This document shows, one piece after another, positions 18,068-39,328 of a stretch of 64,000 nucleotides of DNA (its first letter is position 1; each line of letters starts with the position of its first letter). The notes below the pieces were generated by a model. That model made no database searches. It saw only the letters and a list, made by a program, of their open reading frames with translations, and had not been told where the DNA came from. Origin of the DNA: Escherichia phage ECP2301; the sequence record OR880646.1. One strand, written 5' to 3'. Made by a program: the position numbers and the translations under genes.

Positions 18068-19036
18068 TTATTTCAGAAGAGTAACCTCAGCGATTTCTTC
18101 CCAACCGTTTTTGTCGGTCATAATAAAGTCAGCAAGATAAAGAGCAGTACGCAGTGAAACATTGCGTAAACGATTAACATTAACTTTCATCCATGATAAT
18201 GCTTTATAAGTTTCTTCATCAGAAAGACCGCGCTTTTGCATCATGTCAGTTGAAAGAATAACATCTTCAACTCTGACCATAATTTCTTCATTAGTGTGAA
18301 CACCCAGATCTAAATAAACCGAGCGGGACACTAATGCTTGTAAATGTGGAGCAAGTTTAGTACCACGGTCTAATTCGCGGTCAATGTCAACGTTTGTGAT
18401 AAAAACAATCGTTCCTTTAAATTCAAACTCACGCTCAATGCCTTTTTCTTCTAAGTAAGAAGACGCAGTGCTCCAGCAGACTTTACGGGTCTCTCCAGTG
18501 TCCAGAGCGGCTTTTAGAAGATTAAGAATGTCCATATCAGAGAAAACATCCACATCATCAATCAAAAGGACAGAATTCTCTTCACGATTATTCCAAAGCT
18601 GCTCATAAAGACCAATACCAGAGATTTTACCATTAATGCTTTTATATTCAATGTATCCAATATCATTTGCTTTATTTAAAGCTTTATCTAAAGAATACGT
18701 TTTACCAATACCTGCTGCGCCAGAGATAATCAATGAACGAATATTTCCATTAATAATACCATTCGTCATCATTCCCATAACATTAAATCTTTTATTAATG
18801 CGGGTTTTCATATCTTCATATGATTCTTTAACTTCTTCAACTTTTACACCATCATATGAAATATCTGATTTGTAAACCCAAACACCGCGACGCTTACCGT
18901 CAATTTCAACAAAAACTTTACCATCTCCTTGTGCATCTACCGGAGCATTATCTGGGAACCATTCGCCTAAGAGTTCAAAAGTTCCAGAGATTTCTTTACC
19001 GAAGTAGATACCCTTATTGATAGTTACAGTTTTCAT
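18068..19036 (-). CDS. AAA+ ATPase (Walker A GAAGIGKT, Walker B LLIDDVD)
   Basis: Start set at MKTVTINK (SD GGAG upstream); ORF-track N-terminal extension runs through the promoter leader. Confidence 0.75.
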   Translation of the reverse strand: MKTVTINKGIYFGKEISGTFELLGEWFPDNAPVDAQGDGKVFVEIDGKRRGVWVYKSDISYDGVKVEEVKESYEDMKTRINKRFNVMGMMTNGIINGNIRSLIISGAAGIGKTYSLDKALNKANDIGYIEYKSINGKISGIGLYEQLWNNREENSVLLIDDVDVFSDMDILNLLKAALDTGETRKVCWSTASSYLEEKGIEREFEFKGTIVFITNVDIDRELDRGTKLAPHLQALVSRSVYLDLGVHTNEEIMVRVEDVILSTDMMQKRGLSDEETYKALSWMKVNVNRLRNVSLRTALYLADFIMTDKNGWEEIAEVTLLK

Positions 19037-19054
19037 TTTATTCTCCAAATCCGT

Positions 19055-19105
19055 ATCAGTTGATAGTTGTATAGTACCATAAAGCTTTATGCTTGTAAAC
19101 CGTTT
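19055..19105 (-). promoter_or_regulatory. early promoter, TACTAT variant with conserved leader
   Basis: Minus strand GTTTACaagcataaagctttaTGgTACTATacaactatcaactgatacgg; near-identical copies at 17625-17665 and 34150-34186. Confidence 0.55.
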
Positions 19106-19128
19106 TGTGAAAAAATTTTTGAAATAAA

Positions 19129-19151
19129 AAAGGGAGCCCGAAGGCTCCCTA
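19129..19151 (-). terminator. intrinsic terminator (GGGAGCC-UUCG-GGCUCCC + U5)
   Basis: Plus aaaagggagcccgaaggctccc; minus RNA hairpin followed by UUUUU. Confidence 0.6.
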
Positions 19152-20165
19152 TCATTTATAATAACTTCGATGGTTTTCAAGATAAACCCTCTCAAGGAAG
19201 TCATCCCAGAAACCCATGTCTACTTTTTGCTGCATACCGTTCTTAGAAGCTTCAATGGATGCTGCTTCTACTTGATCGACCACATCTTCCAAAAACTCTT
19301 GAACAGTTTTAAATGGATGTTTACCCAACTTCACGTCAAGAATAAATGGAGCGTCTTGAAGTGGATAGACTAAGTCACCAGTTTTGTAAATTTCCAATAG
19401 TTGGAGTCCACCACGGCAAGCATGACTCAGAGCTTTCCAGTCAATGCCCTCATTCGCTTCAGCCTTACGAGCACGTTCGCCGTATTCAGCATCAAGTTTA
19501 TTCAAAGACTGCTTAAGCTCAATAAGAGAAAGCGTTGTTTGATATTTACGACCCAGCACAGTGTAGAACGTTTGTGGACCTGTTTTCTCATGATTATGGA
19601 ATACCCATTCACAGAATTCGTTCTCTGGAAGACGATGCTTAATATCTTCAACTTTAGTTCGACGCTGCTTAATGGAACCGTCTTCTTGGTAATCAACCCA
19701 TTGCTCAGGGATTTGATTAACTACTTTCAATACATCACGTAATGCGGCCAAACGAGAACCCTTGACGCCGTATTTAGAAGCTTGCTTGCGAACATATCCT
19801 AAATAGGATTTCATGTTAGTCGTATAAAAACGAGAACGGTTGTCTTGAATAAACTTCCATACATCAGGCAAATCAGATTTAACTACCAGTTCAGGTGGAG
19901 TGTGGAGCATATCCAATGCTACAGTTTCACCATCTGCTGCTAATTTAAAGAAATACTTAAGACTGTATAGTTCATGGTCAATATCATCTTTAGTGTTTTT
20001 AGATGATGTGTTGTTAGTGTTTTTACTCATATGCTCTTTAACATTTCCTATAAGAATATCACGAGCAGGAGGAACAAAGATTTCTTTAAAATCTACATCA
20101 GATTCTGGAGTAGAAGTTCCATAAAGATGACTACCAAAATAGCTTTTCATTACTGTTTTCATCAT
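19152..20165 (-). CDS. Pol-beta-superfamily nucleotidyltransferase (resembles the 'predicted nucleotidyltransferase' family associated with RNA-repair loci)
   Basis: 337 aa; N-terminal FGSHLYGTSTPESDVDFKEIFVPP fits GSx(9-13)DxD NTase motif; helical C-terminal domain. Confidence 0.6.
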   Translation of the reverse strand: MMKTVMKSYFGSHLYGTSTPESDVDFKEIFVPPARDILIGNVKEHMSKNTNNTSSKNTKDDIDHELYSLKYFFKLAADGETVALDMLHTPPELVVKSDLPDVWKFIQDNRSRFYTTNMKSYLGYVRKQASKYGVKGSRLAALRDVLKVVNQIPEQWVDYQEDGSIKQRRTKVEDIKHRLPENEFCEWVFHNHEKTGPQTFYTVLGRKYQTTLSLIELKQSLNKLDAEYGERARKAEANEGIDWKALSHACRGGLQLLEIYKTGDLVYPLQDAPFILDVKLGKHPFKTVQEFLEDVVDQVEAASIEASKNGMQQKVDMGFWDDFLERVYLENHRSYYK

Positions 20166-24840: not shown

Positions 24841-25028
24841 TATTCTTCTACGTGCTGTTTACGACCTTTCTTATCTATAAAGGTATATTCAACGAATGTT
24901 CCAATATAGTCTTTATCTACATCATGCGGACTATTAATTGGACATTTAGTACGGCAAATGCGTTCCCATTGACGAATAATTTCCACTTTGTTTTTAGGAT
25001 CAAACGGATGCGGGTAATGTACTTTCAT
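24816..25028 (-). CDS. small hypothetical protein
   Basis: 70-aa ORF. Confidence 0.4.
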   Translation of the reverse strand: MKVHYPHPFDPKNKVEIIRQWERICRTKCPINSPHDVDKDYIGTFVEYTFIDKKGRKQHVEEYCLKVTWL

Positions 25029-25479
25029 AATCCACCACTATTAAATCAATATCAGGAGTAAACATGTCGATTAATTTAGAAACCTTATCCCAATCGCCGC
25101 CAGCAATACCGCAACCTATGCGTGGAATGTAAATTACTGGTTTAAACAAAAGGGTTTCTGCCTGTAGATTTAATTCTATCATGCAGTTTACTAAAGCACC
25201 ATAATCAAGATTAGGACCCGGTTCATATTGCGTATACAGGTTATAGCATATACCAAATCCTGTAGGATTATGTTTAAAAACAATAGACATATCGCCTAAT
25301 TTATCACGAGAACCGTACTCGGTAGTGGTTTTATCTATTTCCAAAATTTTAGGATAGGCTCTTGCTAATTGACCTGCTACGCCAGAGCCCATTGTGTGGA
25401 AGCAATTACACCCGTGCGCAATAATATTACCTTGAAGAAATAGGGCGACAATATCGCCCTTGATATATTTTACAATCAT
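25000..25479 (-). CDS. macro-domain-like protein (ADP-ribose binding/processing fold, tentative)
   Basis: 159 aa; Gly-rich motifs HGCNCFHTMGSGVAGQ and RIGCGIAGG reminiscent of macrodomain phosphate-binding loops. Confidence 0.45.
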   Translation of the reverse strand: MIVKYIKGDIVALFLQGNIIAHGCNCFHTMGSGVAGQLARAYPKILEIDKTTTEYGSRDKLGDMSIVFKHNPTGFGICYNLYTQYEPGPNLDYGALVNCMIELNLQAETLLFKPVIYIPRIGCGIAGGDWDKVSKLIDMFTPDIDLIVVDYESTLPASV

Positions 25480-26885: not shown

Positions 26886-27204
26886 ATTCTTTAAATCTAA
26901 TCAATTTATTCATAGACTTTGAAACTTCTGCACGGACCTCATGTAGGTTTTTAAGCTGTTCAAGACGTTGCTCATAGTAAGCAATTTCATCTTCTTCTAG
27001 ACAGTCCTGTGAATCTTCTTTAAGATAACGTGCATAGTCCTGGAAAGCTTTACGGACTACTTCCTGGAAGTCATCAAGACTTTGAATTTTCTTAGGAGCA
27101 ACAGATACACGACGGTCTGCTGCATAATAATGAGTACCAAAACCTGATAGCAATTGTGCCATTAATATTTTTCCTCTGGTTGGAACACAGCACGACAAGC
27201 CCAC
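26884..27204 (-). CDS. hypothetical protein
   Basis: 106-aa ORF. Confidence 0.5.
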
Positions 27205-27464
27205 ATACTGGCTTCTTTGAGTTTCGTTTTAGCAATAGTTAACTGATCGAGGCTTTCAGCATAATTCTTCGCGAATTCACAGTCTTCACAATTATCCAGT
27301 GCTTCCCAAAATTCATCGTATAAAGCGTCAAAGATAAGTCCTAAACGAACTTCAGCATCTTTGATAGCATTCACTTTACCGATTTTCTCTTCAGTATGTG
27401 GCTTATAACCTTTAATATCTTCAATCATATTTGACTTCCTCACCAGTACATAAATCATATTCAA
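27162..27464 (-). CDS. hypothetical acidic protein
   Basis: 100-aa ORF. Confidence 0.5.
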
Positions 27465-36242: not shown

Positions 36243-36259
36243 ATTTTCCTCACTTAATT

Positions 36260-36335
36260 GGTCGAGGCAGTAGGGATCGAACCTACGACCTAGGACTTAG
36301 AAGGTCCTTGCTCTTCCTTCTGAGCTATGCCCCGT
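36260..36335 (-). tRNA. tRNA-Arg (anticodon UCU)
   Basis: Hand-folded cloverleaf: anticodon loop CUUCUAA, T-loop GGTTCGATCC, CCA encoded. Confidence 0.8.
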
Positions 36336-36339
36336 AATT

Positions 36340-36415
36340 GGGGTGACCGATGGGAGTCGAACCCATGACTACGAGAATCACAATCTCGAGTTCTACCAAC
36401 TGAACTACGGCCACA
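36340..36415 (-). tRNA. tRNA-His (anticodon GUG), no encoded G-1
   Basis: Acceptor GTGGCCG/CGGTCAC, anticodon loop TTGTGAT, discriminator C73, CCA encoded; base at -1 is U. Confidence 0.7.
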
Positions 36416-36529
36416 TTAATACCTACTCCAACAATCAAGATGTCTTCACACGAAATTAAGAGAAGAGTGATCAGTTCAACCCCTATAATCGCGTCAAGTA
36501 GATATTAATGTGACAGTTGTCACAAATTT

Positions 36530-36604
36530 GGCGGACGTGATAGGATTCGAACCTATAACCAATCGCTTAACAGGCGATCGCTCTGCCATTGAGCTACACA
36601 TCCA
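36530..36604 (-). tRNA. tRNA-Asn (anticodon GUU)
   Basis: Acceptor GGATGTG/CACGTCC, anticodon loop CTGTTAA, T-loop GGTTCGAATCC, CCA encoded. Confidence 0.75.
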
Positions 36605-36608
36605 AATT

Positions 36609-36695
36609 GGTGGGGAGTGGTGGAGTCGAACCACCCGAGTCGCAATGACAATGGATTTACAGTCCACACCGCTACCTATACGGGATAACTCCCCA
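36609..36695 (-). tRNA. tRNA-Tyr (anticodon GUA), type II with long variable arm
   Basis: Acceptor GGGGAGT/ACTCCCC, anticodon loop CTGTAAA, T-loop GGTTCGACTCC, CCA encoded, 87 nt. Confidence 0.7.
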
Positions 36696-36704
36696 AATTA
36701 ATTT

Positions 36705-36779
36705 GGTGGCCCTGGGTGGAATTGAACCACCATCTGGCGATTATGAGTCGCTTGCTTGAACCTTCCAGCTACAGGGCCT
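36705..36779 (-). tRNA. tRNA with anticodon CAU (Ile2-type as in T4, or Met)
   Basis: Acceptor GGCCCTG/CAGGGCC, anticodon loop CTCATAA, T-loop GGTTCAATTCC, CCA encoded. Confidence 0.7.
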
Positions 36780-36780
36780 T

Positions 36781-36856
36781 GGTGCTGATTGACGGAATTG
36801 AACCGCCGACCTTCTCATTACAAGTGAGTTGCTCTACCTACTGAGCTAAATCAGCA
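36781..36856 (-). tRNA. tRNA-Thr (anticodon UGU)
   Basis: Acceptor GCTGATT/AATCAGC, anticodon loop CTTGTAA, CCA encoded. Confidence 0.8.
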
Positions 36857-36861
36857 AAACT

Positions 36862-36951
36862 GGCGGAGGCGATAGGATTTGAACCTATGAGTCGCCGGAG
36901 CGACTGCCGGTTTTCAAGACCGGTGCATTAAACCACTCTGCCACGCCTCCA
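36862..36951 (-). tRNA. tRNA-Ser (anticodon UGA), type II
   Basis: Acceptor GGAGGCG/CGCCTCC, anticodon loop CTTGAAA, long variable arm, CCA encoded, 90 nt. Confidence 0.8.
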
Positions 36952-36953
36952 GT

Positions 36954-37027
36954 CTCCATACAAGGATTTGAACCTTGGACCTCCTGATCCCAAATCAGGC
37001 GCTCTACCAAACTGAGCTACACGGAGT
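36954..37027 (-). tRNA. tRNA-Pro (anticodon UGG), CCA not encoded
   Basis: Anticodon loop TTTGGGA; 2 nt upstream of tRNA-Ser, forming a Pro-Ser dimer as in T4. Confidence 0.8.
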
Positions 37028-37036
37028 AAATTAAAT

Positions 37037-37111
<75 letters not shown>

Positions 37112-37116
37112 AATTT

Positions 37117-37203
37117 GGTGCGAGAAGTGGGACTCGAACCCACAAGGAAATCATTCCGCAGCATTTTAAGTGCTGTGCCTTTACCAATTTGGCCATTCTC
37201 GCG
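37117..37203 (-). tRNA. tRNA-Leu (anticodon UAA), type II
   Basis: Acceptor GCGAGAA/TTCTCGC, anticodon loop CTTAAAA, long variable arm, CCA encoded. Confidence 0.8.
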
Positions 37204-37204
37204 C

Positions 37205-37277
37205 TGGGAATAAAGGACTCGAACCTTTGCATCCTGGAATCAAAATCCAGTGCCTTACCAACTTGGCTAATTCCCAA
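37205..37277 (-). tRNA. tRNA-Gln (anticodon UUG), CCA not encoded
   Basis: Acceptor TGGGAAT/ATTCCCA, anticodon loop TTTTGAT; 1 nt upstream of tRNA-Leu (Gln-Leu dimer as in T4). Confidence 0.8.

Positions 37278-38585: not shown

Positions 38586-39328
<743 letters not shown>

Follow-up and report, generated by a model that had tools for sequence, protein, structure and literature searches.

A conserved, phage-specific tRNA-His without an encoded G-1 in the tRNA cluster of a T4-like coliphage

A guanosine at position -1 (G-1) is a textbook and nearly universal identity element of tRNA-His, and the known exceptions involve either a co-evolved histidyl-tRNA synthetase (HisRS) or the protein Thg1. 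How, then, is a tRNA-His gene to be understood that encodes U in this position, and in which form would its product be matured and charged? The question is raised by a gene of Escherichia phage ECP2301 (sequence record OR880646.1), of which one stretch of 64,000 nucleotides, here called the window, was analysed. A sequence-only reading of the same DNA had noticed the absence of G-1 and had offered three explanations: charging of the tRNA despite this absence, unusual processing of the 5' end, or a gene that is not functional as His.

The tRNA-His gene and its cluster

The tRNA-His gene (76 nt, anticodon GUG) occupies positions 36339-36414 of the minus strand, with G1 at 36414 and A76 at 36339. 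ARAGORN reports isoacceptor His with anticodon GTG on the minus strand, the Rfam tRNA model (RF00005) gives a score of 65.1 bits (gathering score, 29), and the covariation of 21 sequences described below supports the same gene. The range 36340-36415, which had first been assigned to it, is one base off, since it takes in the -1 base and leaves A76 out. In minus-strand orientation, the 5' part is ...gguauuaaU / GUGGCCG UA GUUC AGUUGGUA GAAC U CGAGA UUGUGAU UCUCG UAGUC and the 3' part is AUGGG UUCGACU CCCAU CGGUCAC C CCA / auua, after which tRNA-Arg begins. The acceptor stem has 7 bp (G1-U2-G3-G4-C5-C6-G7 with C66-G67-G68-U69-C70-A71-C72), with a wobble pair at G4.U69. Position -1 (36415) is U, where bacterial tRNA-His genes have G, and it is also the 3'-terminal base of a leader hairpin; position -2 (36416) is A. 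The discriminator C73 (36342), invariant in the lineage, is unable to pair with U-1 and is followed directly by an encoded CCA. The anticodon (positions 34-36) lies at 36379-36381, as called by ARAGORN and read in the sequence, within a loop (UUGUGA) that is invariant across the alignment. The two basic observations of the sequence-only reading, that U and not an encoded G precedes G1 and that the acceptor stem is followed by C73 and CCA of the bacterial type, are therefore borne out by direct reading of the bases. Among the bacterial-type features, C73 and CCA are present while the G-1:C73 pair and U-2 are absent; in every respect save the G-1 feature the gene is a tRNA-His.

An alternative cloverleaf with an encoded G-1 was sought among slid registers and in the 8/4 fold, and none of them yields G-1. 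Sliding the 3' partners by one to three columns in either direction leaves 32-48% of the alignment paired, as against 95.7% in the standard register. In an 8/4 fold the eighth pair would be U8.U65, the 7/5 fold being fully paired instead. Finally, reading G36414 as G-1 would turn the 3' tail into the four nucleotides CCCA.

Over 2 kb around the cluster, the sequence shares 96-98% identity with many T4-type coliphages, its best match being Shigella phage SH7 of the genus Tequatrovirus (98%); judged by its sequence, the source phage is a Tequatrovirus, a T4-like coliphage. The Pfam domains of the window ORFs agree with the T4 map (genes 46/47, alpha-glucosyltransferase, nrdG/nrdD, endonuclease VII, and further on tk, regB, denV, lysozyme, Acb1/57B, 57A, and gene 1), and the large plus-strand ORFs from 42053 onward, outside the Pfam scans, are presumed from the same map to be baseplate and tail genes. 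The recorded hosts of the relatives include E. coli, Shigella, Klebsiella, and others. Among the other genes of the window, all on the minus strand, are the anti-defence gene Acb1 (anti-CBASS, PF23474, E = 8e-59; 38632-39087), a small anti-defence protein with an Acb2/Tad1 hairpin domain (PF24729, E = 4e-18; 27162-27464), and a 159-aa ORF with a Macro domain (PF01661, E = 1.5e-6; 25000-25479).

The tRNA cluster (36259-37276, minus strand) comprises 11 tRNAs called by ARAGORN and annotated in relatives too (Gln, Leu, Gly, Pro, Ser, Thr, Met/Ile(CAU), Tyr, Asn, His, and Arg), ten of which reach the Rfam tRNA gathering score. The upstream neighbour of tRNA-His is tRNA-Asn(GUU) (36529-36603, minus strand, ARAGORN), separated from it by a 114-nt spacer. 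Only 4 nt downstream, tRNA-Arg(UCU) (36259-36334, minus strand, found by ARAGORN and in the sequence) probably forms a dimeric precursor with tRNA-His. The cluster resembles that of T4 in its genomic position, in the order Gln-Leu-Gly-Pro-Ser-Thr-Ile(CAU)...Arg, in the closely spaced dimeric precursors, and in the presence of some tRNAs without an encoded CCA. In this sense, tRNA-Pro (36952-37026) and tRNA-Gln (37203-37276), both on the minus strand, do not encode CCA, the other nine do, and the next tRNA begins 1-2 nt after each of these two, as in the T4 dimeric precursors. The tRNA called Met (CAU; 36704-36778, minus strand) occupies the position of T4 tRNA-Ile(CAU) and, by this position alone, probably serves as an Ile tRNA once modified with lysidine. 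Unlike this cluster, that of T4 lacks Tyr, Asn, and His and carries segB, rnaC, and rnaD instead. The tRNAs beyond the T4 set, Tyr(GUA), Asn(GUU), and His(GUG), lie within 36339-36694 (minus strand) and are members of the four-member GUN (queuosine-34) family, a coincidence with a probability of about 0.02 if they were drawn at random from the 12 amino acids that remain. Colicin E5-type anticodon nucleases target the same family.

Conservation in phages and comparison with cellular genes

A BLAST search with the tRNA-His gene gave matches in 635 phage records. For comparison, representatives were taken from eight Straboviridae genera, two Vequintavirinae, and one Bixzunavirus mycobacteriophage, together with 24 viral contigs carrying the D arm of the lineage. 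U at -1 and C73 are shared by all 19 homologous phage sequences that were compared, and these derive from Moonvirus, Jiaodavirus, Gelderlandvirus, Roskildevirus, Kanagawavirus, Winklervirus, Gualtarvirus, Karamvirus, and Bixzunavirus, from the two Vequintavirinae, and from uncultured contigs. The single exception among the D-arm relatives, with G at -1, is a viral-contig tRNA-His (L151, 5160-5235, minus strand) whose acceptor stem is GUGAAUA, and which may represent the ancestral G-1-containing state.

The covariation alignment comprised 20 phage sequences and E. coli hisR (n = 21). Pairing of the cloverleaf is found in 95.7% of its cells, and 15 of the 22 cloverleaf pairs show compensatory double changes, spread over all four stems, a result equalled by none of 500 shuffles. 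The -1:73 pair, on the contrary, forms in two of the 21 sequences, E. coli hisR and L151, and in none of the U-1 members. Since compensatory changes at this many pairs point to selection, the gene is, as far as the alignment can tell, a canonical tRNA under selection and no decaying copy. The suggestion that it is not functional as His is consequently disfavoured, given its retention in many phage genera, the compensatory changes in all four stems, and the invariance of C73 and of the anticodon loop. Compared with E. coli hisR, the phage gene is alike in the GUG anticodon, C73, encoded CCA, the 76-nt architecture, and the pairs G1-C72, U2-A71, and G3-C70, with 61 of 76 positions shared. It differs in positions -1 (U in the phage, G in hisR) and -2 (A in the phage, U in hisR), and thus in lacking a -1:73 pair. 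These comparisons indicate that in the phage lineage U has replaced the encoded G-1, with C73, GUG, and (in the enterobacterial phages) the encoded CCA kept.

Cellular genes were surveyed with the D-arm/anticodon pattern of the lineage in one genome per species of 185,579 bacteria and archaea, which returned 49 loci. G at -1 together with C73 is present in all 35 tRNA-His genes called among them, two of which have an acceptor stem identical to that of the phage. For viral contigs, two lineage-neutral scans (IMG/VR loci L159-L404) provided 89 unique tRNA-His(GUG) genes located in tRNA clusters. G is found at -1 in 52 of these, whereas about a quarter (approximately 23) combine a clean G1...C72 and C73 end with a base other than G at -1, mostly U (e.g., L169, L178, L181, L185, L217, L332, L370, and L400). 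A further, smaller group has A73 or U73 and probably stems from phages of hosts with alphaproteobacterial-type rules (cf. PMC5389517). Where a tRNA-His gene stands alone in a viral contig, it is mostly a host gene at the end of a prophage, and 22 of 23 such genes carry G at -1. The contrast between the cellular genes, all 35 with G-1, and the phage-cluster genes, about a quarter without it, points to a trait specific to phage clusters; by these counts, losing the encoded G-1 while keeping C73 is a recurrent trait of phage clusters and not of cells. What had been regarded as the peculiarity of one gene is in consequence a property of a whole phage tRNA-His lineage that recurs in other phage tRNA clusters.

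A compensatory acceptor feature shared by the G-1-less tRNAs was not identified among the two candidates considered: U69 occurs just as often in phage tRNA-His that has G-1, and the excess of C5-G68 is dominated by one lineage. As a separate observation, one viral-contig tRNA-His (L113, 1851-1926, plus strand) has G at -1 and a U1.C72 mismatch.

Leader hairpin, 5'-end maturation and charging

Upstream of the tRNA-His lies a conserved structured spacer of 95 nt (36415-36509, minus strand), detected by folding and by RNAalifold, whose end coincides with the RNase P site. The closing stem of this leader hairpin has 14 bp (36509-36496 with 36428-36415), and the spacer fold reaches -32.7 kcal/mol (z = -4.4). 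From 12 natural Straboviridae spacers, and with no hint given, RNAalifold predicted all 14 stem pairs, four of them with double compensatory changes, and the pair between A36509 and U36415, the -1 base, is retained in 12 of 12. In the Vequintavirinae the stem is kept with a different sequence and its arms covary. The 12-14 nt preceding G1 constitute the 3' arm and are more conserved among genera than the anticodon stem of the tRNA-His; the 5' arm is placed 63-79 nt upstream, or 4-53 nt in some phages (the loop ranging overall from 4 to 79 nt), and begins in most relatives one base past the CCA of the preceding tRNA. An Rfam search of the spacer gave no meaningful match, and the 114-nt spacer has no homology to the T4 stable RNAs rnaC and rnaD. 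Promoter-like sites are no commoner than in shuffles, none of them falling within the spacer on the tRNA strand. The spacer may serve as a processing signal, as an RNase III/E site, or as a stable small RNA.

Folding also predicts a small upstream hairpin, UGUGAC-AACU-GUCACA (36509-36524, minus strand). The 3' half of this hairpin contains GUCAC (36514-36510), the same sequence as in the 3' acceptor strand of the tRNA-His, which can pair with G1-C5 (36410-36414) to form a 19-bp leader helix across the cleavage site, in competition with the acceptor stem. The five extra pairs, which derive from a low-frequency MFE structure, are possible in 11 of the 21 lineage loci (the window phage and 10 of 20 others). 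U at -1 is nonetheless found without any hairpin in several uncultured contigs and in the mycobacteriophage, where it is the 1-nt spacer between two tRNAs, and the hairpin alone does not therefore explain the U.

For the RNase P of E. coli, U-2 and G-1 are positive determinants of cleavage between -2 and -1, and the G-1:C73 pair blocks the canonical site; C73 by itself is a negative determinant for canonical cleavage (PMC5499578). With A-2, U-1, and no -1:73 pair, canonical cleavage of the phage tRNA-His would be expected. Moreover, a count over phage clusters, covering 1419 unique non-His tRNAs, shows T at -1 in 66% and G in 3%; U being the usual base in this position, the tRNA-His looks like a canonical RNase P substrate. 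The proposal of an unusual 5' processing is thus upheld to the extent that a conserved 14-bp leader hairpin ends at U-1, and weakened by the absence of U-2, G-1, and the G-1:C73 pair, from which canonical cleavage is anticipated.

Could G-1 be added after cleavage? The archaeal and eukaryal genes that depend on Thg1 resemble the phage gene in not encoding G-1, C73 serving in some archaea as the template of the added G, and differ from it in that no Thg1-like protein was detected in the scanned phage ORFs. The Thg1 domains (Pfam PF04446/PF14413) have no match in the window ORFs from 1 to 42000 and likewise none in 10 SH7 hypothetical proteins (roughly 120 aa and longer) encoded outside the window; the remainder of the SH7 annotation shows the gene content usual for T4. 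E. coli is not known to have a Thg1-like protein. Thg1 homologues are found sporadically, in a few jumbo phages (PMC7824862). Taken together, the missing Thg1 match, the standard content of SH7, and the sporadic distribution in jumbo phages make a post-transcriptional addition of G unlikely. Two adjacent ORFs on the minus strand (18068-20165) encode an AAA ATPase domain and an RlaP-type Pol-beta nucleotidyltransferase (PF10127, E = 4e-10), and we take them to correspond to T4 nrdC.10 and nrdC.11. The nucleotidyltransferase (19152-20165) was considered as the G-1 adder and is an unlikely one; against it counts that T4, which has no tRNA-His, contains the homologous nrdC.11. In addition, the predicted role of the RlaP family is RNA repair at a step preceding ligation (PMC7824862).

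As regards charging, the efficiency of E. coli HisRS falls more than 100-fold in vitro without G-1 (PMC5499578; PMC3064791), which means that the phage tRNA-His should be a poor substrate, and the literature regards E. coli tRNA-His lacking G-1 as non-functional for charging (PMC5499578). For this enzyme the 5'-phosphate at -1 matters more than the base (PMC9976931; PMC4357726). The alphaproteobacterial tRNA-His (Caulobacter type) shares with the phage gene the lack of an encoded G-1 and, presumably, maturation by canonical RNase P cleavage. However, that type has A73 and U72 and a divergent HisRS recognising the anticodon and U72 (PMC3064791), whereas the phage has C73 and C72 and its hosts (E. 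coli, Shigella, and other Enterobacterales) have, as judged from the E. coli literature, HisRS of the G-1 type (PMC5499578; PMC3064791). Alphaproteobacterial phages encode (8/4) tRNA-His genes in tRNA clusters, also without G-1 (Mukai et al. 2017, PMC5389517); these combine an 8-bp acceptor stem and a 4-bp T stem with A73 or U73 and fit the rules of their hosts, in contrast to the 7/5 structure with C73 found here, which is at odds with the host rules. For Enterobacterales phages no description of a G-1-less C73 tRNA-His was found, only the A73-type (8/4), in a literature search that left most subscription journals outside, so that an earlier mention is possible.

Competing explanations and their significance

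By a modest balance of probability, the locus encodes a genuine, selected tRNA-His(GUG) of a G-1-less phage lineage, which is cut canonically by RNase P, receives no additional G, and is used by HisRS through C73 and the anticodon. The RNase P of the host would cleave at -1/+1 and give a pG1-tRNA-His with a 7-bp acceptor stem and without G-1; nothing would add a G thereafter, and the host HisRS would charge this tRNA poorly, by C73 and the anticodon alone. A loss of more than 100-fold would perhaps be tolerable for an abundant, accessory phage tRNA. Both the mature 5' end without G-1 and the weak charging are steps that we infer. Several points speak against this explanation. A substrate more than 100-fold poorer for HisRS is hard to square with strong purifying selection over many genera; U-1 sits in a leader helix that in this phage can be extended by 5 bp into the acceptor strand, and processing could be non-standard; C73 disfavours the canonical cut (PMC5499578); and a non-homologous G-adding activity, beyond the reach of a Pfam search for Thg1, may exist.

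Alternatively, the tRNA-His might be largely uncharged and not chiefly a histidine donor, acting instead as a decoy or sponge for some host factor, as a spare copy that escapes a host defence directed at the G-1/8-bp end peculiar to the host tRNA-His, or surviving as a slowly decaying passenger in the cluster. This possibility, unlikely though of some weight, agrees with the reported lack of charging of G-1-less E. coli tRNA-His (PMC5499578), with the absence of the gene from T4, which makes it accessory, and with the occurrence of the G-1-less C73 type in about a quarter of the phage-cluster genes and in none of the 35 cellular genes, which suggests a phage-specific selective reason. It is opposed by the maintenance of the anticodon loop, C73, the first three acceptor pairs (those of E. 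coli hisR), and a cloverleaf with compensatory changes, that is, by the conservation expected where HisRS, EF-Tu, and the ribosome must still recognise the tRNA. We know of no defence system that targets G-1, which counts against the idea of escape from a defence. Related to this is the rather improbable joint reading that the loss of G-1 with C73 kept is an adaptive, phage-specific design: a tRNA-His matured by the host as an ordinary tRNA, evolved repeatedly in phages, evading something that recognises the G-1/8-bp end of the host tRNA (possibly a defence nuclease, a toxin, or a quality-control step), and charged during infection by a route around the G-1 requirement of E. coli-type HisRS, the leader hairpin being part of the maturation programme. 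On this reading the loss would not be a defect that is merely tolerated.

The remaining alternatives concern the 5' end itself. Retention of U-1 in the mature tRNA, either by RNase P cleavage at -2/-1 or by another nuclease acting on the leader helix, would leave a 5' strand of 8 nt with a U-1.C73 mismatch and restore charging in part. It would put the 5'-phosphate where HisRS expects it (PMC9976931; PMC4357726), human tRNA-His molecules with U-1 exist (PMC5238791), C73 is unfavourable to the canonical cut (PMC5499578), and U-1 is invariant and placed inside a conserved helix that abuts the cleavage site. Nevertheless, the determinants of the -2/-1 cut (U-2, G-1, and the -1:73 pair) are all replaced or missing, with A-2 and U-1 in their place, U is simply the commonest -1 base among phage tRNAs, and in the mycobacteriophage it is an inter-tRNA spacer of one nucleotide with no hairpin; we regard this retention as quite doubtful. 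Least credible of all, and very improbable, is the addition of G-1 after RNase P cleavage by an unrecognised phage or host enzyme, templated by C73 as in some archaea. The gene, with C73 and no G-1, does match the Thg1-dependent archaeal tRNA-His genes (PMC5499578; PMC9508852), and a few jumbo phages have Thg1 homologues (PMC7824862). This is outweighed by the negative Pfam results in window ORFs 1-42000 and in the 10 SH7 hypothetical proteins, by the ordinary T4 content of the remainder of SH7, and by the occurrence of the tRNA lineage in unrelated phage families that share few genes.

The missing G-1 is thus, by all the comparisons made here, a real, conserved, and phage-specific anomaly. 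A widespread and conserved tRNA-His lineage breaks the G-1 rule in the best-studied system, that of E. coli and the T4-type phages, with neither of the known compensations visible. The interesting part lies in the tension between the predicted poor charging and the strong conservation. It may be that E. coli HisRS usefully charges a G-1-less tRNA-His in vivo, that the 5' end arises by an unexpected route, or that the tRNA has a role other than the delivery of histidine; each of these outcomes would inform the understanding of tRNA identity, of site selection by RNase P, and of the debated purpose of phage tRNAs.
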